A DNA stretch of 15,158 nt from Candidatus Eiseniibacteriota bacterium (GTDB lineage Bacteria > Eisenbacteria > RBG-16-71-46 > DASYSL01), in the NCBI GenBank assembly GCA_031431875.1, contig JANPEF010000069.1, positions 1-15,158 of the forward strand. Reading direction: 5' to 3'. The position numbers and the translations under genes are program-made. How positions within the stretch are numbered: the stretch's first letter is position 1; the number at the start of each line of letters is the position of its first letter. Shown in pieces: positions 8 through 15,012 of this stretch. The notes under the pieces were generated by a model that worked only from the letters and a program-made list of their open reading frames with translations, was not told the DNA's origin and made no database searches.

Positions 8-1321
8 ATGATCCTGCGCCTGCTTCGCCTCCTCCTCGTCCCGCTCAGCGCCCTGAGTCTCCTCACGGCCCCCGTCCTGCCGGCGAAGGCGGCGGCGCTC
101 TGCGACAGCACGACCAAGCGCCTGATTCCGCTCACCGAACTTGGCGCTGCAACGTACGCCGGGCAGGCCGGCGGACTGTATCCCGGTGGAGTCAACGCGA
201 TGCCCGCCGCGCATCTCGCCGCCGGGCTCGCGCGTGCGGCGACGATCGCGCCGCTCGACACGCTCGGCGTGCCGTCCGCGGCGGGACGCATCGTCGTGCT
301 CAGCGTCGGCATGTCGAACACGACCCAGGAGTACTCGACGTTCATTCCCCTGGCCAACGGGTCGGGCCTCAAGAATCCGCGCGTGCTGCTCGTCGACGGG
401 GCGCAGGGCGGACAGACGGCGGCAGTCTTCGCCAATCCGAATGCGAATGCTTGGGCGGTGATCGAGTCCCGGCTGGGTGCGATGGGCGTTCGCGCGGCGC
501 AGGTGCAGGCGGTCTGGCTCAAGGAGGCGAACGCGGGGCCGACGCAGGGATTCCCGACGGCGGCGCAGATCCTGCGCGACGACTTGCGGGCCGTCATGCA
601 GAACCTGCACGCGAAGTTTCCGAACCTGAAGCTCTGCTACCTGAGCAGCCGCATCTACGCCGGCTACGCCTCGACCGGGCTCAACCCCGAGCCCTACGCC
701 TACGAGTCGGGATTTGCCGTGCGCTGGTTGATCGAGGAGCAACTGTCCGGCAGCCCGACGCTCAATCCCGATTCGACCGCGGGCCCCGTCATGGCCCCGT
801 GGCTTGCGTGGGGTCCGTACCTGTGGGCCGACGGACTCATGCCGCGCGCGGACGGGCTGACCTGGGAGTGCGCGGACTTCAGCACGACCGACGGCACGCA
901 CCCGGCGACGAGCGGTCGCGACAAGGTCGCGCAGAAGCTCCTCGCCTTCTTCACGACGGACGCAACGGCGGCGCCGTGGTTCTCGCTGCAGAACGTCGCC
1001 GTCGATCCAGATCCGGCCGGCGCAGCCGGTCCGCGCGGTCTGCGGATCCAGACGCTGTGGCCGAACCCGGCGCGAACAGCGCTGTACGCCCGGGTCGATG
1101 CGCCGCACGCAATGAGCGTCGGCGTCGAGCTCGTCACGGTCGACGGCCGAATCGTCCGACGGCTCGCCGCGACCCAGCTCGCGCCCGGTCCGAACACGCT
1201 GGGCTGGCCGAACCTGGCCGATGACGAAGGCCGTTTGCTGCCCCGCGGGGTGTACTTCCTGCGGATCCGGGACGAGGCTGCGCGACTGTGGGGCACGCGG
1301 GGGTTCGTCTTCGCGCCGTGA
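8..1321 (+). CDS. Secreted SGNH/GDSL-like hydrolase with C-terminal FlgD-Ig-like / T9SS-type sorting domain (437 aa)
   Basis: N-terminal signal peptide (MILRLLRLLLVPLSALSLLTAPVLPAKAAA). Block I-like GMSNT and block V-like DGTHP motifs. The C-terminal WPNP...VELVTVDGRIVRRL...LAPG...W...D.EGR.LP.GVYFLRI pattern is typical of FlgD-Ig/sorting domains. Confidence 0.65.
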   Translation: MILRLLRLLLVPLSALSLLTAPVLPAKAAALCDSTTKRLIPLTELGAATYAGQAGGLYPGGVNAMPAAHLAAGLARAATIAPLDTLGVPSAAGRIVVLSVGMSNTTQEYSTFIPLANGSGLKNPRVLLVDGAQGGQTAAVFANPNANAWAVIESRLGAMGVRAAQVQAVWLKEANAGPTQGFPTAAQILRDDLRAVMQNLHAKFPNLKLCYLSSRIYAGYASTGLNPEPYAYESGFAVRWLIEEQLSGSPTLNPDSTAGPVMAPWLAWGPYLWADGLMPRADGLTWECADFSTTDGTHPATSGRDKVAQKLLAFFTTDATAAPWFSLQNVAVDPDPAGAAGPRGLRIQTLWPNPARTALYARVDAPHAMSVGVELVTVDGRIVRRLAATQLAPGPNTLGWPNLADDEGRLLPRGVYFLRIRDEAARLWGTRGFVFAP

Positions 1322-1324
1322 GCT
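1254..1324 (+). repeat. 71-bp direct repeat, copy 1 (3' end of the hydrolase gene including its stop codon)
   Basis: 65/71 identical, ungapped, to 5712..5782. Confidence 0.95.
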
Positions 1325-1365
1325 TGTCATGGGCCAGCTGCCGGGGCGGCTGGTGGGGATGAACG

Positions 1366-2352
1366 TCAGCCATCATCCATGAGCGGCTCGAGGCCGAGGT
1401 GGGCCCGCACATGCCTCTGTTTCCAGCGCAGCATCGGCTGCGCCCGGATCCGCGCCTGCAGCGCGCCGTCGGTGGTGAGCAACTCGGGCCGGAGTTCCCC
1501 GCGCTGGAGAAATGTCTCAAGGAACGCGCGCTCCCCGGTTCCGAAGGCAAGCAGCTGTCTCACCGCCGGCGCGAGAGCCTCATCGAGCAAAGCGCTCAGA
1601 GCTCGAGCCTCGATCGCCGGCTTCCCCGCGGAAGTGCGCAGGAGAGGCACGAGCTGGTGCCCCACGTCGTGTCGGCTCAGGGGCGTCAAATCCGGGGATC
1701 GATCGCGCACATCCTCGCGCGCGCCCGCGACCAGGACGACGAAGGCAGCACGGAACCCGGCGTCGGCAAGCAGCCCGGGTCGTTCGTCGAGCAGCCGCGC
1801 GGCGTCGTAGCGGTCGCGGGCGACGGAACGGCTCACGAGAGCCGCAAACTTGCCGGCGGCGAGTTCCTCGAGGGAGTATGTCGTGACCTCGGATCCGGTC
1901 AGGCCCTCCACGACCACCCGACGACGAATGGTCCCGAGGATCGGCACTCGCATGACGTAGTTCACGTCGAGCTCGAGATTCTGTTCGCCACCGAGCAGGC
2001 TCGGGAAGCGCAGCCGGAACTTCCCTCCGGCATGCTCGGACGGTTCGCGCAGCACCCGGCAGCCGGCAAGCTGGACCGCATGGATCAGCCGCCGCTCGAA
2101 CTCCGGCCGAAGCCCCTGCAGCTCTGCCGCCGTGCAACGGCCAATGAAGTTGAGGTCGATGTCGACCGAGAGGCGAGGGAGCTCGAGCCAGAACAGGTTG
2201 AGCGCCGTTCCGCCCTTGAGTGCGTAGCGGTCCGCGACGCCCTCCTCGACCTCGATGCGTTCGAGAAGGTCGACGAGGCGCAGGACTTTCTCGAGGGCAT
2301 CGGCCCGGAATCCGAGCTCGCGGGCGCGCGTCTCCAAGTCAGATCGCGTCAT
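1366..2352 (-). CDS. abiEii: AbiEii-family nucleotidyltransferase toxin (type IV TA / abortive infection), 328 aa
   Basis: Motifs YALKGGTALNLFW..LPRLSVDIDLN, ELDVNY, and LEELAAGKFAAL..R...RDRYD. Overlaps the upstream antitoxin gene by 14 bp. Confidence 0.92.
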   Translation of the reverse strand: MTRSDLETRARELGFRADALEKVLRLVDLLERIEVEEGVADRYALKGGTALNLFWLELPRLSVDIDLNFIGRCTAAELQGLRPEFERRLIHAVQLAGCRVLREPSEHAGGKFRLRFPSLLGGEQNLELDVNYVMRVPILGTIRRRVVVEGLTGSEVTTYSLEELAAGKFAALVSRSVARDRYDAARLLDERPGLLADAGFRAAFVVLVAGAREDVRDRSPDLTPLSRHDVGHQLVPLLRTSAGKPAIEARALSALLDEALAPAVRQLLAFGTGERAFLETFLQRGELRPELLTTDGALQARIRAQPMLRWKQRHVRAHLGLEPLMDDG

Positions 2353-3145
2353 CGGCTCCGCCCCCCGGTTGCCCCCCCGCCCATTCGGCGGGCACCACCA
2401 GGTTCCAGCGCGGAACCAGACTACCCGGCCGACTTCGATCGAACGAGACGGGACCTCGCGGGCGGCGCTTCTCCAGGCGCTCGAGGAGTGATTCCGGGAC
2501 CAGCCAGCGCTCGCGCGCGGCCTCGAGGAGATAGCCCAGACGTGCGATCAGCACCGGACGAAGGATGTGCTGGAGCAAGCGCTCGAGCTCGCGCAGGTCG
2601 AGGACCTCGAGGGCGGCGACGGATCGCAGGATCTCCTCCACTCCACCGCCCAACTCCGGGCGATCGAGCACGTCGAGCAGGGTTCGTTCCCGCGTGGTGA
2701 CCCGCACGTCCCCGTCGGGCCGACCCCTGGTCTCGACCCCGTCGAGCGGAGCCGCGGCATAGCCGGCGCGCGGGCGCACGGGGACATAGCTCGTTCCTGC
2801 GTGGCGAAGCTCGCGGACCCTGGTCCATGTGCAGAAGTAGAGGCGCTGATAGGAACTCTGGGCGTAGCCGTGCAGCTCGAGGGCTGTGTGGAATGCGAGA
2901 ACGGCGTCCGGGGCCACGCGTCCGGCCAGCGAGTACGGATCGACCGGAGGCGAGTTCGCCTCGTCTGTCGAGTCGACGCGGACGTAGAGGCCTTTGCGCA
3001 GGCGGCGGACGCGTCCAGATCCACCCCAGCGCACAAGGTGACTGTCGAGCGTTGCCGGGGACCGTTGCCCGGGGACGCCGAGCGCGGCCGCCATTTCCTC
3101 GCGGGTGAAGACTCTGTGCCCGTGCAGGAATTCAGCTGGGTTCAT
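2339..3145 (-). CDS. abiEi: AbiEi-family antitoxin / transcriptional regulator (~268 aa; alternative start 3154)
   Basis: C-terminal part of the listed 911-aa ORF, starting MNPAEFLHGHRVFTREEM. wHTH-like N-terminus (GRVRRLRKGLY), LAFHTALELHG, and VRVTTRERTLLDVLDRPELGGGVEE. Directly upstream of abiEii. Confidence 0.9.
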   Translation of the reverse strand: MNPAEFLHGHRVFTREEMAAALGVPGQRSPATLDSHLVRWGGSGRVRRLRKGLYVRVDSTDEANSPPVDPYSLAGRVAPDAVLAFHTALELHGYAQSSYQRLYFCTWTRVRELRHAGTSYVPVRPRAGYAAAPLDGVETRGRPDGDVRVTTRERTLLDVLDRPELGGGVEEILRSVAALEVLDLRELERLLQHILRPVLIARLGYLLEAARERWLVPESLLERLEKRRPRGPVSFDRSRPGSLVPRWNLVVPAEWAGGQPGGGADDAI

Positions 3146-3204
3146 TGCATTCATCCCCCGGAACCGGCTTAAACATGCCGGATCAGGGGATCGAATGCAA
3201 GAAC
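3140..3204. promoter_or_regulatory. Long imperfect inverted repeat over the abiEi start and promoter; probable AbiEi autorepression operator
   Basis: Arm 3140-3168 GTTCATTGCATTCATCCCCCGGAACCGGC versus the reverse complement of 3177-3204 GTTCTTGCATTCGATCCCCTGATCCGGC, with an 8-nt spacer. Confidence 0.65.
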
Positions 3205-3288
3205 AAGACTCTCTCTGTCCGGCGCGGATTTCCTCGTAAGTCACCGGGGCGTCGCGCTTTGGCCAAGCCCGGCCGCCTCTCCGCAGAG

Positions 3289-3294
3289 TAGTCT
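3289..3294 (+). promoter_or_regulatory. Putative -10 element (TAGTCT) of a leaderless kinase transcript
   Basis: TANNNT hexamer 7 nt before the ATG at 3302, with no Shine-Dalgarno sequence. Mirrored by TACACT (6318-6323) 9 nt before the paralogous ATG at 6333. Confidence 0.45.
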
Positions 3295-3301
3295 GCCCGC
3301 C

Positions 3302-5617
3302 ATGCCCCTCACCCCCGGCACCCGCCTCGGCACCTACGAAATCCTCTCCCCGCTCGGCGCCGGCGGCATGGGCGAGGTCTACCGCGCGCGCGACACGCGC
3401 CTGGGCCGCGAGATCGCGGTCAAGGTGCTGCCCTCCGAAGTGGCCGCATCCCCGGATAGCCTCGCCCGCTTCGAGCGCGAGGCCCGCACCGTCGCCGGCC
3501 TCAACCATCCGAACATCGTCACGCTGTTCTCGGTCGAGGACGAAGGTGGCGTGCGCTTCCTCACCATGGAGCTGGTCGAGGGTCAGACGCTCGTCGACCT
3601 GATGACGCCCGGAGGGCTGCCTCTCGCCCGCGTGCTCGAACTCGCGATCCCGCTCGCCGATGCCCTCGTCGCCGCGCACGAGCGCGGCGTCATCCATCGC
3701 GACCTCAAGCCCGGCAACGTGATGGTCACGCGCGAGGGCCGGGTGAAGGTGCTCGACTTTGGGCTCGCGAAGATGGCGGACAACGCGGACAACGCGGCCA
3801 ACGCGGAGGAAGCGGCGGCGTCGAACGCGCAAACGATCGCCGCCCCCCTCACGGGCGCCGGCGAAGTGCTCGGCACCATCCCCTACATGGCCCCGGAGCA
3901 GCTGCGCGGCGAGACTGCGGATGCTCGCTCCGACCTCTTCGCTTTCGGCGTGCTGCTCTACGAACTCGCCACCGGCCGCCGGCCATTCACCGGAGCCAGC
4001 TCCGCCGAAGTCGGCTCCGCCATTCTTCGCGACACGCCCGAGCTGCTGACCCGCGTCCGGACCGACCTCCCGCAGGATCTCGAGCGCGTCGTGAGCCGCT
4101 GCCTGGAGAAGAACCCGCGCGAGCGCATCCAGTCGACGCTCGACGTCAGCAACGAGCTGCGGCGGCTGCGCAAGGCCGCCGAACGCGGCACGCCCGGGAC
4201 GCCGGCCGCTCCGGACAAGGTCGCCTCGATCGCCGTGCTCCCGTTCGTCAATCGCAGCGCCAGCGCCGACGACGAGTACTTCTCCGATGGCCTGGCCGAC
4301 GAGCTGCTCAACGTGCTCGCCCGCATCCGCGGCATCCGCGTCGTGGCGCGCACCTCCGCGTTCCAGTTCAAGGGAACGAAGGACGACATCGCCACGATCG
4401 GCCAGAAGCTGAACGTCGCCACCGTCCTCGAAGGCAGCGTGCGCAAGGCTGGCAATCGCATCCGGGTCTCCGTGCAGCTGGTGAACGTCGTCGATAGCTC
4501 GCACCTGTGGTCCGAGACCTACGACCGCACCCTCGACGACATCTTCGCCGTGCAGGACGACATCGCGCAGTCGGTGGTGAAGGAGCTGCGCACCTCGCTC
4601 CTCGGCGAGGCGCCGGACTCGGATGCGAGCGGCCAGGCGAAGGCCGAGGTGGCGCAGGCGGCGAAGGGCCGAGCCACCAACCCCGAAGCGCATCGGCTCC
4701 TCCTGCTGGCGCGGCACCTCTTTGATCGGTTGACGCGCGAGGACTTCGCGAAGGGGATCGAGTACCTGAAGCAGGCGGTCACACTCGACCCCGAGTTTGC
4801 GGGGGCCTGGGTGGAGCTGGGCGGGGCGCACACGAGCGAGGCGGACTACGGCTGGGTCCCGGCGGTCGCGGGGCATGCGCGGGCCCGGGAGGATGTGGAG
4901 CGGGCGCTGGGGCTGGAGCCAGACCTGGCGGAGGCGCATGCGACCGTGGCGTGGACACGGATGATGCACGACTGGGACTGGGCCGGCGCGGAGGCATCGA
5001 TTCGCCGGGCGATGGAACTGGCGCCGGCAAGTTCCCAGGTGCTTCGCAGCGCTGGCTCGCTGGCTCGCAAGCATGGCCGTCTCGACGAGGCGATCGACTT
5101 GTTTCGCCGGTCCCTGGAGCAGGACCCGTTGAGTTCAGCGACCTCCCACAACCTGGGGATGGCGCTCGATCTGGCCGGTCGTTTCCGGGAGGCGGAGGAG
5201 ATGTATCGGCGGGCGCTGGAACTCAGCCCGCAGAGACTTGTCACGCATTCCACGCTCTCCCTCGTCCTGCTCGCCCAGGGCCGACCCGAGGAGGCGCTGG
5301 CGGAAGCGACACGGGAGCCGGAGGCTGCGTTTCGCCTCTGGGTCCTGGCGATCGTTCACCACGGCATGGGCCACGAGGCGGAGTCGGACGCGGCGCTGCG
5401 GGAACTGACCGAGAAGTACGCGGAGGACTTCGCGTACCAGGTCGCCGAGGTGCACGGAGCCCGCGGGGAGGTGGACGCCGCGCTCGAGTGGCTGGAACGA
5501 GCGCACGCGAAGCGAGACTCCGGGCTCACCGAGATGAAGGGCAGCCCGCACTTGCGGTCTCTCCACGGCGATCCGCGGTGGAGCGCATTCCTGAAGAAAA
5601 TGGGACTCGAGGACTGA
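3302..5617 (+). CDS. Hanks-type Ser/Thr protein kinase with TolB-like domain and TPR repeats (771 aa)
   Basis: Kinase motifs [35 protein letters not shown]. TolB-like segment [11 protein letters not shown]...[10 protein letters not shown]...[23 protein letters not shown]-type helices follow ([20 protein letters not shown]). Confidence 0.95.
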
Positions 5618-5672
5618 TCCCGGGCGGAGCCCGAGTTGTAAAGCCCGGAGGGACCGTCCTCTTCCCTGGAGG

Positions 5673-5707
5673 TGTGTACGTTCTGTACACAACGTACGGA
5701 CCGTACG
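5673..5707. promoter_or_regulatory. Array of four GTAC palindromic cores at 9-bp period (orphan operator-like site)
   Basis: GTAC at 5676, 5685, 5694 and 5703, forming the palindromes TGTGTAC-N5-GTACACA and CGTACGG-A-CCGTACG. Confidence 0.45.
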
Positions 5708-5711
5708 CACA

Positions 5712-5782
5712 ACTTCCTGCGGATCCGGGACGAGGGAGCGCGACTGTGGGGCACACGAAGGTTCGTCCTCGCGCCGTGAGCT
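5712..5782 (+). repeat. 71-bp direct repeat, copy 2 (orphan 3' end of a hydrolase gene allele)
   Basis: Encodes FLRIRDEGARLWGTRRFVLAP* versus FLRIRDEAARLWGTRGFVFAP* in gene 8..1321; 6 mismatches. Confidence 0.95.
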
Positions 5783-5798
5783 GATCGAAGTCCTTGGC

Positions 5799-6152
5799 TC
5801 ACTGCCGCAGGATCTTCTCCATCGCCTTGCCCCGGGCGAGCTCGTCGATCAGCAGGTCCAGGGATCGGATCTTCCGCATCAGGGGGTCTTCGACCTCCTC
5901 GACACGGACGCCGCACACGACACCCTTGATGAGTGCGCTGTCGGGATGGAACTTCGGCGCCTTCGCGAAGAAGGTCTCGATGTCCGACTGAAGCTCGAGC
6001 TGCTTCTTCAGGCCCGCCGCGGTGTAGCCGGTCAGCCAGCGGATGATCTGATCGGCCTCCTCCTTCGTCCGACCCTTCTACTCCGCCTTCGCCACGTAAT
6101 GCGGATACACCCCCGAGAACGTCATCGTGTAGATCCGGTGCTTCGTCGGCAT
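5799..6152 (-). pseudogene. DUF2200-family protein with in-frame amber stop at 6078-6080
   Basis: Reads [42 protein letters not shown]...ETFFAKAP...[44 protein letters not shown]. The frame continues intact after the TAG. Confidence 0.85.
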
Positions 6153-6332
6153 GGTCGGTCTTCGGACGTCTCGTGTGGCTTCGTCATCGAGCGACTCGTC
6201 TTCGGCCGCGGTAGCGTCATCATCCTGTAAGCCGCCGCTGCCTGCAAGGCGGGGCCAGCCGAGCGCCTGACGCGACACCGGGCCTTACATCCCGCGCACG
6301 CCCGCCCCCCTTCCGGGTACACTCCCGCCTCC

Positions 6333-6533
6333 ATGTCCCTGACCCCCGGCACGCGCCTCGGCACCTACGACATTCTCTCCTCCCTCGGCGCCGGCGGCAT
6401 GGGCGAGGTCTATCGCGCCCGCGACACGCGACTGGGGCGTGAGATCGCGATCAAGGTACTGCGCGCCGACGTCGCCGCCTCGCCGGAGAGACTCGCCCGC
6501 TTCGAGCGCGAGGCTCGCACCGTCGCCGGGTAG
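6333..6533 (+). pseudogene. Truncated Ser/Thr kinase (first 66 codons only), paralogue of 3302..5617
   Basis: 57/66 aa identical to the N-terminus of the intact kinase. Similarity stops abruptly at ARTVAG, followed by TAG and unrelated lower-GC DNA. Confidence 0.92.
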
Positions 6534-7149
6534 ATGGTCTCGGTACCACGGGATACTTAGCCATCTACTTGAAAGGGCGATTACAAATGAGGACTACGAC
6601 ATGGCTAGATGCACAGCACCAGTATATGGACATCGCACATCAAGTGGGGCAGCGGCCTGCCCCGCATGTGGTAGCCGCTCTCGCGGCTACGGGCCATCTC
6701 CCTCCTCCTCGTCGGGGAGCAGTGGGAGGAGCTGGGGTGGCCGGAGCAGCATCGGCGGGTCCGGCAGCGGCGTGAGGCCGCGCTGGTCACGAGTAGGTTC
6801 GTCCAGTGTCTACACGCCTGCCGAGGTGCGGACGCTCACGCCGGTCCGTGGAAACGTCGAGAAGCGAGCGTCCGAGCCTGACCTTCGAGATGTATTTCTT
6901 TGCCACGCGTGGGACGACCGGAAAGGGGCCGCCAAGGAGCTCCACGATCTGCTCGAGTCGCGCGGGGTCTCGGTTTGGTTCAGCGACAAAGACGTCCTCC
7001 TCGGCGCGTCGTTGCTCCGCGAAATCGATAAGGGATTGGCGAAGTCGCGAGTCGGGATCGTGCTGGTGACCCCGGCGCTGTTGCGCCGCCTCGCAGCAGA
7101 GGGCATCGCCGACAAAGAGCTTTCGGCACTCTTGGCGCGTGATCTGCTA

Positions 7150-8252
7150 CTGACACCTGCATTAGTAACGTCCTATCCAAGGCGTGAGAAGAGCGGCGTG
7201 GCGAGCAGGAAGGACCTCAGCAGGTCGGGCCGGCACCGGATCTGGATGAAGTGCCGCTTCGCGCGATCGGCCAGGAGGAACGCGTCGGTTGCCGGATGGT
7301 TGGCGAGCGGGTTCATCTTCAAGTATGCCCAGAGCATTTCGACCGGGTTGAGCTCGGGTGCGTAGGGCGGGAGGAACTCGAGGTGAACACGCCCGGAGCG
7401 GTCGAGAGCCTCGCGCAGTTCGTTGGCGCGATGAGCAGCAAGGCGGTCCCACACGACCACGAGGGGCCGTTGCAGGTGGCGGCGCAGATCGGCAAGGAAG
7501 CGTCGGAAGTGACCAGCCTTCGCGTTCTCACCCGGCAGCAGGGCAAAGTAAAGTCCTACGCGCCGTTTGCTCGGCGAGAGCGTGAGCGCACCGATGACCG
7601 AGACTTTGTCGTGGGACCGCGTGCGCTGGTAGAGGATCGGCGTCTGGCCGCGCGGCGCCCAGGTGCGGCGCACCAGGGGCGCCATCAAGAGCCCGGTCTC
7701 GTCGATGAAGACCAGACTCGCGTTCAGCCGGCGGGCTTTTTTTTAACGCGCGGCCACACGGCTTTGACCCACGTCCGAATGGCCTCCTCGTCGCGCTCGC
7801 GCGCACGCCGCTCAGGCTTCTGCGGACTCCAGCCAAGGGCATGAAGGAGTCGACCGACATGATCCACGTGGTACTCGACACGGAAGCGCCGATCGATGAG
7901 TTCAGCGACGCGCGGACACGTCCACAGGTCGGTCGGAAAGCCGTGGGCAAGAGCGCCACGCAAGAGCGCCTTCTCGAGTCGAGCGCGTTCCGCCGCGCTC
8001 AGCTTCGACGGTCGACCGGGGGTTGGGAGCGCACGAACTCCGGCGCGCCCCTCGGCATCGAAGCTCGCACGCCAACGTCGCACGGAGCGACGATCGACAC
8101 CCACCCGACGAGCAACTTCGACGGGCAGCAGGCCTTCCTTCAGCAGATCGAGCGCGCGCAGGCGGCGGCGCTCCAGTTCGACGGGACTTCCGGACGGGCG
8201 CATGGGTTCCCTCCCGTCCAGGAGTATGGGACATTGCTTATGCAGGCGTCAA
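7150..8252 (-). mobile_element. IS630-family insertion sequence (1103 bp)
   Basis: Imperfect terminal IRs CTGACACCTGCATTAGTAACGTCC and (reverse complement) TTGACGCCTGCATAAGCAATGTCC. TA duplicated at 7148-7149 and 8253-8254. The reconstructed target is CTAG. Confidence 0.95.
7173..8203 (-). CDS. IS630 transposase made from two ORFs by a probable -1 frameshift (HTH ORF 7724..8203 plus DDE ORF ending at 7173)
   Basis: OrfA has HTH/winged-helix motifs (WTCPRVAELI, LLHALGWSPQKP). A8G slippery run (T8 at 7737-7744 on the + strand). The -1 frame gives VFIDETG...VVVWD...LPPYAPELNPVE, the DDE triad. Confidence 0.92.
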
Positions 8253-8429
8253 TAGTTCCCATCGTGCACGACACGACGTATGAAGCTCTCCGCGAAGTCA
8301 GCCCCCTGCTCGGCTCGCGAAGTGGCCTGAGCACTGCAGAAGAGCCGATGGCAGACGTCGCGGCCAAGCTCGCGGAGCTAGTCACAATCTAAATTGAGCG
8401 CATCGTGTTCAGTTCCCCGGGACTGTGCG

Positions 8430-8492: not shown

Positions 8493-8519
8493 GGACCATG
8501 ATTGAGCACGGCTAGGGCC

Positions 8520-9773
8520 ATGGCGAAAACAGCACCACGAGAAACCACTCACAAGCGGGTTGGAGGGTCCAGTCATTCGACGGACGTTCCAACCAAAGCG
8601 GAGAGCAATCCAATGAATCGAGGGCTGGGCGCCGCGAAGACGGCCAAGAAGGATGAGTTCTACACCCAGTACGTGGACATCCAAAAGGAAGTCGAAGCCT
8701 ACCTCGAGTTCGACCCTGACACCTTCCGCAACAGAATCATCTACTGCAACTGCGACGACCCCTTTGAGAGCAATTTCTTCAAGTACTTCGCCGCTAACTT
8801 CAACAGACTCAGCCTGAAGAAACTCATCACCACCAGCTACGACGGCTCGCCCATCGCCGGCCAGGGCACGTTGTTCCCGGAATACAGCGAGGGCAACGGC
8901 AGGCGGCAAAAGCCCAAGGCCCTGGCCGTCATCCTCGACCACGTGAAGGACGAGGACGGCGACGGCGCGGCCAACGTGATCGACGTCGCCCTCTTCCTCA
9001 AGCGCAACAAGGCAGCCCGCATCGCCCTCAAGGGCAACGACCAATACCCCGGCGGCGACTTCCGCAGCCCCGAGTGCGTTGCGTTCCTCAAAGAGGCCGA
9101 CATTGTCGTCACCAACCCGCCGTTCTCGCTGTTTCGGGAGTACATCGCACAACTGATCGAGCATAAAAAGAAGTTGCTGGTCATCGGGAATCTAAACGCG
9201 ATCAAATACAAGGTGGTCTTTCCGAGTTTTCAGGCCGACAAGCTTTGGCTCGGTCCAACCATCACCAGTGGAGATCGAGAATTTCAGGTCCCAGCTAGTT
9301 ACCCCCTCAATGCCGCGGGATGGCGAGTTGATGAAGACGGAACCAAATTCATAAGAGTGAAGGGTGTGAGGTGGTTCACCAACTTGGATCATGGCCGTCG
9401 CCACCAGCCCCTGAGCCTAATGACTATGGCGGAGAATCGAAAGTTCAACAAGAAGCTTGCAGGGAAGGGCGCCTACGACCGTTTCGATAACTACGAGGCG
9501 ATCGAAGTTCCCTTTACCGACGCCATACCCAGTGACTACGAGGCCACCATGGGCGTCCCAATCAGTTTTCTTGACAAATACTCGCCGGAGCAGTTTGAAG
9601 TCATTTGGCAGGCGAGCGGCAACACTCGTGCGTCAACTCCGGAAAACGTTCTGAAACAAATGGGTTATACTCCGCATCCTGACGACCGAGGCGGCTGCGC
9701 GATTCTAGCTGGACGAAGGACCTACGACAGAATATTCATCCGTCGCCGCCGCAAAGCGGGGAGGAAGAAGTGA
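8520..9773 (+). CDS. EcoRI-family adenine-specific DNA methyltransferase (start uncertain: 8502, 8520 or 8613)
   Basis: Motifs [38 protein letters not shown]...[25 protein letters not shown] and [16 protein letters not shown]. Confidence 0.92.
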
Positions 9774-10936
9774 AAACCACCCTGCGTACCGACCTCACTG
9801 TCGCCGATATCTGCAACGGTTTTGTCTACAACCAACTCGAAGGCAAAGGCCTCTTCGGCCTGGGCGGGACGCTCACCATCCAGCCGGAGTATCAGCGGAA
9901 CTACATCTACGCCGAGGGGGGTGGAAAGCGCGAGCAGGCGGTCATTCACTCGCTGCTGAAGGGGTATCCGCTCGGGCTGATCTATTTCAACAAGGTCGCG
10001 GCGGACAAGTTCGAAGTGCTGGACGGCCAGCAGCGCATCACCAGTGTCGGGCGGTTCGTCACGAACAAGTTCGCGGTCATGGACGGCAACAACCCGCAGT
10101 ACTTCGACAGCCTCCCCGCCGACCAGCAGACCCGGATCAAGGACGCGAAGCTGCTGATCTACGAGTGCGAGGGGACGGAGACCGAGATCAAGCTGTGGTT
10201 CGAGACGATCAATATCGCCGGCGTACCGCTAAACGCGCAGGAGCTTTTGAACGCCATCTATTCCGGCCCGTTCGTCACCAAGGCCAAGGAGGAGTTCAGC
10301 AACAGCCATAACGCCAAGATCCAAAAATGGAGCGCCTACATCAAGGGCAGTGCAAACCGGCAGGACTACTTGGAGCGGGCACTGGACTGGGTGAGCAGGG
10401 GGGATATCGGCGGCTACATGAGTGCCCAGCGCAACGATAAGAGCATCAACGAACTGAAGGCCTATTTCAACGCTGTGATCGATTGGCTTTCCACCGTGTT
10501 CCCGGATGTTCTACACGAGATGCGCGGCCTGGAGTGGGGCAGACTGTACGAAACGTACCACAGCAAATCCTACGATCCGGGGAAGATGTCGGCCGCAGTC
10601 CAGAAGCTCGCGGCTGACGACTGCATCACGGATCGCAGGGGAATCTTCGAATTCCTCCTGGGCGGTTCGACCGACAAGAAGCTGCTGGCCGTGCGGGTGT
10701 TCGACGGCAAGACGAAGCGGGTCGCGTACAACAAGCAGACGCAGGAGGCGCAGGCGAAGGGCAAGTCCAACTGCCCGCTGTGCGCGGTCGGCGAGAACGC
10801 CAACAAGGGCAGGATCTACAATCTTGACGATATGGACGCCGATCACGTTTCCGCGTGGAGCAAGGGCGGCGACAGCTCGCCCGAGAATTGCCAAATGCTC
10901 TGCACTACCCACAATCGCGCCAAAGGCAATCGATAG
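9770..10936 (+). CDS. DUF262 (GmrSD/ParB-like) plus C-terminal HNH endonuclease (388 aa)
   Basis: [42 protein letters not shown], and [12 protein letters not shown]....NCQMLC..HNRAK. The GTG start overlaps the methyltransferase stop (GTGA). Confidence 0.92.
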
Positions 10937-11388: not shown

Positions 11389-11955
11389 TCAGCAGGAAGC
11401 GGCGACGCTGAGACACGTGATGAGCAGTCCGACAGCGGTGAGGAGAACAGCAACGAGCAATGACATCTGTGCCCAGCCCACCCAACCAGCCTTCTTTGAA
11501 TTAATCGCGTCCACTTCTGCGCTCGCCGCATCAAAATTGCGCGCGTGGTCGAATACCAGCTCGCGGATCCGCGTCTTGAACTCAGCGGGCGTATGGGACG
11601 CCGCGATAAGGGCTTCGGCGCGCTCACGGAAGTGATCGGACGTTTCCAGGGTCACCACAGTGCGGACGAGCAGCGCGGCAATTGCGGTCACAATGGAGAC
11701 CAGCATGCCTGCTCCCGCCAGCGCGAACCACGCGATGCTGCAAGGGGGGAGGGACCCGAAGGAGCGAACAAGGGCAAAGCCCCCACCCAGGAAGATTCCG
11801 GCGATAGCTATCGTGCCCTGGGCCTTCTGCTCAATGTCGCGCCAAGTCTCGTTGCTCTCGTCGTATTCGCGTCTCGCATGGTCCAGTACGAGTCTGGCGA
11901 TCGACTTGTGCAAGTCGTCCATGACGTCGGCTGCCTCCTCCTCCGGTGCGGTCAT
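11389..11955 (-). CDS. Hypothetical membrane protein with ~3 TM helices (alternative start 11922 with GAGGAGG upstream)
   Basis: Hydrophobic segments GTIAIAGIFLGGGFALV, IAWFALAGAGMLVSIVTAIAALLV and MSLLVAVLLTAVGLLITCLSVA, separated by a charged helical loop. Confidence 0.75.
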   Translation of the reverse strand: MTAPEEEAADVMDDLHKSIARLVLDHARREYDESNETWRDIEQKAQGTIAIAGIFLGGGFALVRSFGSLPPCSIAWFALAGAGMLVSIVTAIAALLVRTVVTLETSDHFRERAEALIAASHTPAEFKTRIRELVFDHARNFDAASAEVDAINSKKAGWVGWAQMSLLVAVLLTAVGLLITCLSVAASC

Positions 11956-11997
11956 GCCATGGTGTTTCGGCAAATGTGCCCGCGGCTTGAGGACGTT

Positions 11998-12111: not shown

Positions 12112-12204
12112 GGTGGGTTTGTGCTTTGATCAGCGACAATTAGAACTCCCGCCCGCATTGACTCACCCCTTCTGCTACCGAGAGGGGGGTGCGTGTTTCG
12201 GAGC

Positions 12205-12321
12205 ATCGTGAACACCCAGATCGGACCATCGTGAACGCCTGGATCGGGATCGTGAACGGCTAGATCGGCATCGTGAACACCCGGATCGGGATCGTGAACG
12301 GGTAGATCGGTGATCGTGAAC
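12205..12321 (+). repeat. Six tandem ATCGTGAAC-N5-GATCGG units in the IS21 left end (transposase-binding repeats; last unit core only)
   Basis: ATCGTGAAC at 12205, 12228, 12249, 12270, 12291 and 12313. Two inverted copies occur at the right end (14735, 14757). Confidence 0.9.
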
Positions 12322-12412
12322 AGGCCACCCTGCCGCCGAACGGGGCGGGTGCCGGGCCTGGAGCGACGCTGGGGAGTCCAGTTGTCCACCCACCCCTCGA
12401 AGGAGGGCCTGG

Positions 12413-13951
12413 ATGGCGACCGAGCGACTGCCCATGCGCAAGATCCGAGAGATTCTCCGCCACAAGTGGGTTGGAGGCCGGAGCCACCGCGATGTCGCGG
12501 CCGCCCTGCGCATCAGTGTGGGTGCGGTCTCTGCCGTCGAGCGACGGGCCCGGGAGGCCGGTCTCGATGCGGCGACCGTCGAGGCTCTGGGCGACGACGC
12601 GCTCGAGGCTCGTCTCTACGGCACCACGGCCGCCGAGCGCCGTCGCGTGCTCCCCGATCCCGTGTTCATCCACACCGAGCGCAAGAAACCCGGCGTCACG
12701 CTCGAGCTGCTGCATCAGGAGTACCTGGAGCGTCATCCGGACGGCTATCGCTACACGCAGTTCTGCGAGCACTACCGGCGGTGGTGCAAGGACCGGCGGC
12801 TCTCGATGCGCCAGGTTCATTACGCCGGCGAGAAGCTCTTCGTCGACTACGCTGGGAAGAAGCCGTCCGTCACGGACCCGGTCACCGGCGAGATCCGCGA
12901 AGTCGAACTGTTCGTCGCCGTCCTTGGTGCCTCGAACTTCACCTTCGTCGAGGCCACCGCGAGCCAGCAGATCGCCGACTGGATCGGCAGTCACGTTCGC
13001 GCCCTCGAGTTCCTCGGCGGCGTGCCCCAGGCGATCGTTCCCGACCAACTGAAGACCGGCGTCACCCGCGCGTGCCGGTACGAGCCCGAACTGCAACGTA
13101 GTTACGAGGAGCTCGCCCGCCACTACGGCACGGTGATCTTGCCTGCGCGCCCGGCTTCGCCCAAGGACAAGGCCAAGGCGGAGGTCGGCGTCCAGATCGC
13201 CGAGCGGTGGATCCTGGCGCGCCTGCGCCACGAGGTGTTCTTCTCCCTCGCCGCGTTGAACCTGCGCATCCTCGAGCTCCTGGACGAACTCAACGCGCGC
13301 GCCATGCGGCACTACCGCACCAGCCGCCGCGCGCTCTTCGAGCAACTCGATCGGCCGGCGCTGAAGCATCTGCCCGAGACTCGCTACGAGCACTCGCTCT
13401 GGAAGTTCGTGCGGCCCGGGCTCGACTACCACGTCGAGTTCGATCACCACTACTACAGCGTTCCGTTCACTCTGCGCCACGAGAAGCTCGACCTGCGTTC
13501 GACTTCGAGCACGGTCGAGATCTTCAGGAAGGGTGAGCGCGTCGCGTCGCATCTGCGGAGTTCCCTGCGCGGGCGCCACACCACCGTCACGGAGCACATG
13601 CCGAAGAGCCACCAGGCGCATCTCGAGTGGTCGCCCGAGCGCATCGCGCGTTGGGCCGCGACGATCGGCCCTTCCACCCGCGCCCTGGTCGAGGCGATCT
13701 TCGCCGACCGTCCACACCCGGAGCAGGGCTACCGCTCCTGTCTGGGCATCCTGCGTCTGGCCAAGCGTTACGGCGACACCCGGCTGGAAGTCGCCTCCGG
13801 GCGGGCCCTTGCCGCGCGCGCGCGCTCCTATCGGCATGTTGAATCGATCTTGAAGCACGGACTCGACCGGGTGCCCGCCCCGGACGCGAGTCCCGACGAC
13901 GTCGCGGCCATCGCGCACGTCAACCTGCGCGGGCGCGACTACTACCGCTGA
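12413..13951 (+). CDS. istA: IS21 transposase IstA (512 aa)
   Basis: MRKIREILR HTH, AGEKLFVDYAG, FVAVLGASNFTF, VPDQLKTGV, PKDKAKAEVGVQIAERWILARLR. GGAGG RBS upstream. Confidence 0.96.
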   Translation: MATERLPMRKIREILRHKWVGGRSHRDVAAALRISVGAVSAVERRAREAGLDAATVEALGDDALEARLYGTTAAERRRVLPDPVFIHTERKKPGVTLELLHQEYLERHPDGYRYTQFCEHYRRWCKDRRLSMRQVHYAGEKLFVDYAGKKPSVTDPVTGEIREVELFVAVLGASNFTFVEATASQQIADWIGSHVRALEFLGGVPQAIVPDQLKTGVTRACRYEPELQRSYEELARHYGTVILPARPASPKDKAKAEVGVQIAERWILARLRHEVFFSLAALNLRILELLDELNARAMRHYRTSRRALFEQLDRPALKHLPETRYEHSLWKFVRPGLDYHVEFDHHYYSVPFTLRHEKLDLRSTSSTVEIFRKGERVASHLRSSLRGRHTTVTEHMPKSHQAHLEWSPERIARWAATIGPSTRALVEAIFADRPHPEQGYRSCLGILRLAKRYGDTRLEVASGRALAARARSYRHVESILKHGLDRVPAPDASPDDVAAIAHVNLRGRDYYR

Positions 13952-13965
13952 TGGAGGATCACGGC

Positions 13966-14712
13966 ATGCTCAACAACTCGACGCTCGAGAAGCTCTCGGC
14001 CCTGCGCCTGCCCGAGATGGCCGCGGCCTGGCAGGAACAGCAACGCCGCACCGACCACGACACGCTCACCTTCGACGAACGCTTCGGACTCCTGGTCGAT
14101 GCCCTGTAGCTCGGCCGGGAGAACCGCCGGCTCGAACGCTCGCTCAAGGAGGCCCGGCTCCGGCTCACCCAGGCCAGCCTCGAGGCCATCGAACATCGGC
14201 CTCATCGTCCGCTGAACAAGCCGCACCTGCGTCAGCTCGCCACCGGCCGCTGGATCGCCGAGCATCACAACGTCGTCGTGACCGGGCCGACTGGCACCGG
14301 CAAGACGTTCCTCGCTTGCGCACTGGCCCATCAGGCGTGCCGCACCGGGTCCCGCGTGCTCTATCGCCGGATGCCGCGGCTGTTCGAAGAACTCACGCTC
14401 GCCCACGCCGACGGCAGCTACACGCGACTGCTGGCTCGGATGGCGCGGATCGACGTTCTTGTGCTCGATGACTGGGGGCTGGCGCCACTGCGCGATCAGG
14501 ATCGGCGAGACCTGCTCGAGATCTTCGAGGACCGCTACGGCATGCGCTCCACGATCCTCACCAGCCAGTTGCCGATCGAACACTGGCATGATCATCTCGG
14601 AGAGGCTACCGTGGCCGACGCGATCTGCGACCGGCTGCTGCACAACGCCCACCGGATCGCTCTCGAAGGGCCGTCCTGGAGAAAGGAGGAGAGCGCTCAA
14701 CTCAACGACTGA
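13966..14712 (+). pseudogene. istB: IS21 helper ATPase IstB with in-frame amber stop at codon 48 (14107-14109)
   Basis: GGAGG RBS. MLNNSTLEKLSALRLPEMA...FDERFGLLVDAL*LGRENRRL continues in frame to Walker A GPTGTGKT, Walker B VLVLDDWG and ADAICDRLLHNAHRI. Confidence 0.92.
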
Positions 14713-14927
14713 ATCCCCAGCGTCGCTCCGCTCCGTTCACGATGACCGATCGGGGTGTTCACGATGGCCGAAATACGCAGCCCGGCTCCCGCGGGTCGGC
14801 GAGTCGGTGTGACTCGGGTGGACTACCGCCCCGGGCGACGGGTTCGCAGCTGACCCGCCACGGTCTGCGCACCGGCAGCCCGCCCGTTGATGATTCCCGA
14901 GCGATCAACGTGCCAGATTTGCTCGGG

Positions 14928-15012
14928 ATGGTTCTGAAAAACCTCAGTTCAGAGGGGGGAATGGTTCTGCAAAACTATCGGGGATGGGGTCCCATGGTTC
15001 TGAAAACTGACA
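14928..15012 (+). mobile_element. Orphan transposon-like right end with three ATGGTTCTG(C)AAAA repeats, ending ...CTGACA
   Basis: Repeats start at 14928, 14961 and 14994 (33-bp period). Read inward, the terminus is TGTCAGTTTTCAGAACCAT. No matching left end was seen in the window. Confidence 0.55.

Follow-up and report, generated by a model that had tools for sequence, protein, structure and literature searches.

A duplicated gene end and tandem kinase units in an uncultured Eisenbacteria genome are consistent with stacking of two alleles by host recombination

Introduction

Minimal mobile elements are reportedly a finding of Saunders and Snyder (2002) in Neisseria, and homology-facilitated illegitimate recombination is said to go back to de Vries and Wackernagel (2002). 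In this study, we compared these and other described systems with a locus on a 15,158-bp contig (JANPEF010000069.1), which was analysed as a whole and is called the window here. It belongs to a 3.75-Mb assembly (G000; 70% G+C) of an uncultured sediment bacterium of Candidatus Eiseniibacteriota that carries dozens of Ser/Thr-kinase and secreted-protein paralogues. In the window, the end of a secreted-protein gene recurs downstream, and each copy is followed by other genes (abiE or DUF2200) and a Ser/Thr kinase gene.

The definition of a minimal mobile element was taken from PMC3787668. The locus resembles such an element in that close relatives carry different content between one pair of flanking genes, and in having no recombinase inside. 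However, the two flanking genes stay together in no more than two or three genomes (1 of 61 homologous loci and a 58-nt scrap in the relative G002), and its alleles do not replace each other but stand in a stack, with a gene end in duplicate. Such stacking would work like homology-facilitated illegitimate recombination (PMC6382021) or like a tandem duplication joined by microhomology (PMC1428787), which likewise combine one homologous anchor with one joint of few matching bases. In E. coli, such microhomology joints sometimes fall in REP palindromes, without preference for them (PMC1428787). Unlike in these two processes, the joint here falls inside the anchor gene and duplicates its end.

The locus also contains a palindromic repeat with a CGTACG array. 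For the Neisseria NIME/dRS3 repeats, intergenic copies at syntenic sites have been proposed to seed one crossover, with RecA completing the exchange in adjacent DNA (PMC1797815). The model of one crossover in a repeat and the syntenic intergenic sites near surface or secreted-protein genes are shared, but the repeats here are single hairpins of ~120 bp, ~16 per genome, with no arrays, no candidate recombinase and no significant association with variable sites. Like REPIN/RAYT systems (PMC8049555), they are extragenic, lineage-restricted and vertically kept hairpins with decayed partial copies and presence/absence differences; in contrast, their centre is a conserved CGTACG array with a 9-bp period and not a diverse spacer, their copy number is low, and no repeat-flanked RAYT was found in G000. 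As with integron cassettes, an imperfect hairpin of comparable length stands close behind stop codons, and the genome holds an integron integrase. The attC site is a hairpin with the consensus RYYYAAC ... GTTRRRY, whereas the repeats here end the other way round (GTT...AAC), and the only canonical attC sites are those next to the integrase on contig C74. The abiE genes match a type IV toxin-antitoxin system (PMC3985639) in abiEi-abiEii order, overlap and upstream inverted repeat, and nothing notable differs from the description there. An earlier, sequence-only reading of the window had offered attL/attR-like integration as one origin of the locus; the direct repeat of a gene 3' end would fit this, but no encoded tyrosine or serine integrase lies between the repeats.

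Results

The gene end and the kinase head are each present twice

The window opens with an intact gene for a secreted protein (open reading frame 8..1321, plus strand), whose C-terminus falls in Por_Secre_tail/FlgD-like Atlas clusters (0.96-0.98). Its last 22 codons, stop and 3 further nt (tail 1, 1254..1324, plus strand) recur as an orphan gene end without an upstream reading frame (tail 2, 5712..5782, plus strand). The two 71-nt copies differ at 6 positions (65/71 identical), are spaced 4458 bp apart and share a longest perfect stretch of 24 nt. Tail 1 is followed by abiEii, encoding a type IV toxin of the nucleotidyltransferase type (1366..2352, minus strand; PF08843 6e-27, PADLOC 2e-78), abiEi, encoding the antitoxin (2339..3145, minus strand; PF09407/PF13338, PADLOC 8e-62), and an intact Ser/Thr kinase with TPR repeats, identified by domain search (kinase 1, 3302..5617, plus strand). 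Tail 2 is followed by a DUF2200 pseudogene (5799..6152, minus strand; Pfam) with a TAG at codon 25 (6078-6080), and by a 66-codon head of a second kinase (kinase 2, 6333..6533, plus strand), whose stop is supplied by an inserted island of defence genes. The kinase heads (3297-3498 and 6328-6529) share 88% nt identity: 24 of 198 nt are changed, as are 9 of 66 amino acids (57/66 identical); 14 codon differences are synonymous and 9 non-synonymous.

These measurements reproduce the sequence-only reading for the repeat, the kinase heads, the intact kinase 1, the minus-strand cargo and the lack of an integrase or recombinase among the proteins between the repeats. That reading had called the first gene a hydrolase; its repeated tail stands, but no Pfam, NCBIfam or PDB match backed the name, and only a weak lead from the sequence, an Atlas GDSL cluster (0.87), hints at an SGNH esterase. 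The DUF2200 gene and kinase head that it placed in the second unit are present, but with one interrupted by a TAG and the other cut at codon 66, this unit is, judged from its letters, non-functional. The 3' half of kinase 2 was not found in the G000 assembly.

Both kinases belong to one locus

We examined 61 homologous loci of the secreted-protein gene (19 genome loci with 1.5-kb flanks and 42 metagenome loci, many of them short). Its orthologues were 94% identical in amino acids in G002 and 88% in a second relative, G001. The results showed that the G001 gene is followed by a 107-bp gap consisting of a degenerate palindrome copy, then by a full kinase and the left end of another palindrome copy, with no cargo gene, an empty allele of the locus. 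In G002, the last codons of the gene are lost and a 58-nt kinase scrap is left, a deletion scar. The content behind the gene therefore differs in all three close genomes (abiE and DUF2200, none, and a scar). A kinase lay 3' of it at 1 of the 61 loci, that of G001, and abiE or DUF2200 at none of them. Close homologues of abiEii occurred in 0 of 9 family genomes and 17 of 121 genomes overall, and DUF2200 in 5 of 61 genomes. Ordinary intergenic sites also differed in content between G002 and G000 in 20-29% of cases. The sequence-only reading had called the interval a variable slot and had proposed aligning it across relatives; flank contents do vary, but the gene-kinase pair is not conserved, and the cargo-free G001, the scar in G002, the single adjacency and the similar change at ordinary sites speak against a dedicated, reusable slot.

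A kinase tree was then built from 36 heads of 198 nt. Kinase 1, kinase 2 and the kinase adjoining the secreted-protein gene in G001 formed one clade (support 0.74), in agreement with two alleles stacked in tandem, as first suggested from the sequence. The pairwise differences (of 198 nt) were 19 between kinase 1 and the G001 kinase, 24 between the two kinases of the window, and 25 between kinase 2 and the G001 kinase; most of them are synonymous, indicating that kinase 2 is a long-diverged functional allele and not a fresh decayed copy. It keeps the G001-type leader and a repeat arm, and 6308-6530 is 87% identical to the leader and kinase of G001. The best full-length match of kinase 1 in the genus is also the G001 kinase, and its leader resembles that of another paralogue (G002:C52). 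For the gene ends, tail 1 differed from G002 at 2 of 61 nt and from G001 at 10, and tail 2 at 7 and 12, placing tail 1 nearer to both relatives.

The second joint lies in a palindromic repeat

The spacer behind kinase 1 (5618-5711) is most of one copy of a dispersed palindromic repeat. Its left arm and CGTACG array (5629..5711) are cut at a novel joint, 5711/5712, where tail 2 begins, and the right arm, followed by the kinase leader, takes up the repeat again at 6259 (6259..6294), no more than 3 nt off the point reached by the left part. The right arm matches the copy on contig C33 at 26 of 36 nt (none of 20000 shuffles was as good), and together with the leader at 60 of 77. The rejoined halves scored 71 bits with the covariance model of the repeat and folded with z -3.2. 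At the cut, about 5 of 6 incoming positions of the secreted-protein gene resemble those with which other copies continue. The joint is a non-homologous junction, at the place (~5711) that the sequence-only reading had given for a second one.

Metagenome contigs of 4 of 13 listed runs were compared with the window. Separately assembled short-read contigs of runs X1 (4565-6411) and X4 (5668-6411) cross 5711/5712 without differences, and a further X4 contig (1001-1590) runs across the end of tail 1 (position 1324) into abiE. No single contig of these short-read runs spans both tails. No excision joint or circle was present among the joints listed, in contigs that drop rare variants. Contig depth in X1 is lower right of 6530 (about 4-7 versus 15-17), and cover of 5567-6072 in run X5 is near zero; neither was used as evidence.

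The palindrome measures ~115-140 bp and consists of terminal inverted repeats around three or four CGTACG units with a 9-bp period. A covariance model found 16 loci in G000 and hits in 7 of 41 genomes, all of one family, and a strict pattern occurred in 6 of 121 genomes, 5 of those in the genus. When genome contigs were scanned with a pattern, 80 of at least 119 matching stretches were examined and 3 held the full repeat, the rest being mostly simple tandem repeats; the public records with a full repeat are Candidatus Eisenbacteria. Eight folds, made on 5 copies, were better than those of shuffles (z -2.4 to -9.6), and pairing was kept across diverged copies (86% of cells paired, 0 of 500 shuffles), a figure to be read with the relatedness of the copies in mind. 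Most copies sit shortly 3' of stop codons and occupy sites shared by G000, G001 and G002; some are present in one genome and absent from another. Partial repeats also occur at other gain/loss junctions (C149, C76 and G001:C175). We compared empty orthologous sites (C45, C31 and C73) for a target-site duplication, and the flanks were too diverged. No description of the palindrome was found in Rfam or in literature naming Eisenbacteria. A reading of CGTACG as a restriction site was rejected because CGTACG is not avoided genome-wide (observed/expected 0.91). In another genus, G007 carries a longer variant of 139-150 bp with five or six GTAC units. The start of C33 (C33:1-230) is identical to window 5561-5665 for its first 105 nt; from there, within the palindrome, it departs from the window and leads into an intact copy and a different kinase. 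A coexisting allele, a second copy or a mis-extension are possible explanations.

A second displaced gene end occurs without the palindrome

Among 2522 called genes tested, an intact gene whose 3' end has an orphan copy nearby occurs only at this locus and on contig C91. On C91, a 223-nt stretch that includes the stop codon of a large secreted-protein gene (59096-59313) recurs 2.78 kb downstream (61879-62099) at 87% identity, with a 718-aa cargo gene between the copies. The corresponding site in G001 and G002 has a single gene end and lacks the cargo gene. Of the sequence behind the single gene end in G002, 43 nt are retained with the downstream copy, which has also diverged more than the upstream one (10 versus 5 of 150 nt against G002), showing that a resident copy can be the one with more changes. 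A claim from tail divergence that copy 1 of the window is native was accordingly dropped as non-decisive, since a displaced copy decays. The C91 duplication has no palindrome and no junction motif in common with the window locus, indicating that tail duplication around cargo recurs without the repeat. Both displaced ends belong to genes with a FlgD-like tail (109 of 2522 genes by a rough motif), a likeness noticed post hoc. Just after the stop of a paralogous kinase, 50 nt (C29:13024-13073) repeat the C79 kinase's 3' end at 94% identity, possibly as a replaced gene end.

Remaining features of the units and of the island

An inverted repeat read from the sequence 5' of abiEi (3145..3200) is likely the AbiEi operator, a prediction by analogy with PMC3985639. 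The stretch 3096-3200 is conserved across homologous loci. The start of abiEi is 3145 or 3154, and one homologue has its start at the position corresponding to 3145. One half of the inverted repeat, 9 nt long (3150-3158), recurs inverted just after abiEii (1352-1360). An intact paralogue of DUF2200 lies on contig C117 next to another palindrome copy. A promoter and terminator scan gave nothing above shuffles, and the single, weak Rfam match was outside the locus described here.

In the island that cuts kinase 2, an IS630-type element interrupts a TIR gene; a methylase-nuclease pair and an IS21 element are also present. At its left edge a short hairpin (6530..6568) folds weakly (z about -1.8); it had no exact match in the metagenome contigs, and plasmid matches to the TIR gene do not cover it. 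The TIR-domain gene (6601-8392; ThsB-like in PADLOC) holds the IS630-type element at about 7147-8255, and runs X5 and X9 carry the gene uninterrupted, without IS630. Window 8502-10936, of lower G+C, encodes an EcoRI-type adenine methylase adjoining a GmrSD_N-HNH nuclease, and 11389-11973 (minus strand) a 194-aa membrane protein with weak PycTM similarity. The IS21-type element (12186-14783) has five 21-23-bp repeats at its left end and a TAG in istB near 14108, and a second repeat-bearing end lies at 14930-15012. The flanks match C76:33830-33941 and C76:32894-33039.

Discussion

In this study, we found that the window holds a duplicated gene end and two kinases of one clade, joined at a non-homologous junction in a palindrome. 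The arrangement probably arose when two alleles of one locus, consisting of the secreted-protein gene, a repeat and a kinase, were stacked by host recombination through one homologous and one short-homology joint. We read it as two alleles of one locus because both kinases group with the kinase adjoining this gene in G001. The ancestral state would be that of G001, with the gene, a palindromic repeat, a kinase and a second palindromic repeat. In two lineages, cargo may have replaced most of the first repeat, abiE in one and DUF2200 in the other. The first joint of the stacking would have formed by homology within shared sequence of the secreted-protein gene or the kinase and would have left no visible mark. 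The second, whose position is seen in the window, would have used short homology between the base of the repeat's inner hairpin and position 1254 of the gene, leaving the 71-bp gene end in duplicate. The downstream unit has since acquired the TAG in DUF2200, and the island has cut kinase 2. No dedicated recombinase would be needed, and the second allele could have come from a related strain or from an old duplication in place. As to polarity, we lean slightly towards the downstream unit being the displaced resident and the abiE-kinase 1 unit the incoming one. On this reading, the locus has the look of a scar left by ordinary recombination, not of a device dedicated to swapping genes.

Several observations weigh against stacked alleles. 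The two parts of the repeat, left part and right arm, come within 3 nt of each other and are recognized by the model when rejoined, and two independent junctions would give such a register only about once in ten cases by our own estimate, unless the site is a hot spot. Neither a plain DUF2200 allele nor a plain abiE allele was found in any genome searched. Clade support is modest for 198 nt, kinase 1 is nearer than kinase 2 to the G001 kinase (19 versus 25), contrary to the proposed polarity, and the stretch of C33 identical to the end of kinase 1 is left unexplained.

The register of the repeat halves would follow directly if kinase 1, the repeat and kinase 2 were an ordinary tandem pair, into whose repeat one 547-bp piece with the gene end and DUF2200 (5712-6258) had been copied at the hairpin, through template switching or through break repair. 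The repeating unit would then be repeat, leader and kinase, and not tail, cargo and kinase. We consider this account rather unlikely, though the strongest competitor. Tandem kinases are common in G000, and C33 has the order of kinase end, intact repeat and kinase, which fits stacking and insertion alike. However, the insertion requires a separate source in which DUF2200 already stood behind such a gene end, kinase 2 groups with the kinase adjoining the gene in G001 and not with that of C33, and C91 presents a parallel without the palindromic repeat.

It is improbable that the palindromes are recombination sites of an unlinked enzyme and serve as reusable cargo slots, with AbiE locking the added unit in place. 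Three junctions of the locus (at abiE, at DUF2200 and at 5711) do map to positions in the repeat, partial repeats sit at other gain/loss junctions, the hairpin is retained across diverged copies, and G000 encodes an integron integrase and an IS110 element. However, repeats were not significantly enriched at gene-content breaks, with 5 of 10 repeat loci versus 25 of 87 controls (p 0.28). In this version, 4 of 15 repeat loci were left out for want of flanking genes and 1 more at contig ends, as were 11 of 98 controls; two syntenic loci were labelled wrongly by its thresholds. A second version (14 loci used, 1 dropped; 6 of 80 controls dropped) gave 4 of 13 versus 15 of 74 (p 0.47), and the controls were 40 G002 stretches (422 kb). 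The samples are small, so a real effect may exist. The shared sites of most copies in the three genomes and the lack of a junction motif in common with C91 also argue against such slots.

Candidate enzymes for these slots did not fit. No recombinase was found among the proteins between the repeats; the tyrosine and serine hits lie elsewhere (3 PF00589 and 1 PF07508), and the integron integrase (TIGR02249, 458.8 bits) is on C74, unlinked to the locus. The integron on C74 is complete: it has three canonical attC sites, and its cassettes and integrase are read in one direction. We rejected an attC reading of the palindromes, whose ends are reversed; a heuristic scan gave 9 hits genome-wide, with three sites on C74 and none on the window contig. 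A RAYT partner was rejected as well, as the sole Y1-transposase-like gene is on C120, a contig with no repeat, and occurs in 10 of 10 family genomes, even those without the repeat. This gene looks domesticated, and its neighbours are what we take to be lexA-like and dinB-like genes. Contig C61, which carries the IS110 element, has no repeat copy.

It is similarly doubtful that CGTACG palindromes and coding ends with FlgD-like tails are the preferred joints of a gene-capture route of this family, a dispersed, integrase-free analogue of an integron. Equally doubtful is the proposed working of such a route, in which incoming DNA would be fixed by duplication of a host gene end and an unlinked enzyme, host or mobile, would open the hairpin at one fixed position. 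If true, the route would serve kinases, secreted proteins and defence genes. AbiE can stabilize plasmids (PMC3985639), and a role of AbiE as guard against loop-out of the added unit is plausible by analogy. Loop-out between the tails is possible with their 24-nt perfect stretch, and would also delete the only intact kinase.

A chimeric assembly of two co-occurring strains is highly improbable. In its favour, only short reads are at hand, no contig spans both tails, C33 branches away at 5665 and X1 departs from the window at several sites. Against it, contigs of two runs pass 5711/5712 unchanged, one of X4 passes 1324 and no k-mer shared at the joint is long enough for a mis-join. Both runs come from one study, and one may be the source of the window.

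The locus thus offers an example of how an uncultured lineage may gain and shuffle genes, with alleles stacked, a gene end duplicated and the spare unit decaying into a landing place for defence islands. The apparently undescribed palindromic CGTACG-array repeat and the second displaced gene end on C91 are the leads of lasting value, and if breakpoints in the repeat prove fixed, they would point to a new recombination or transposition enzyme.

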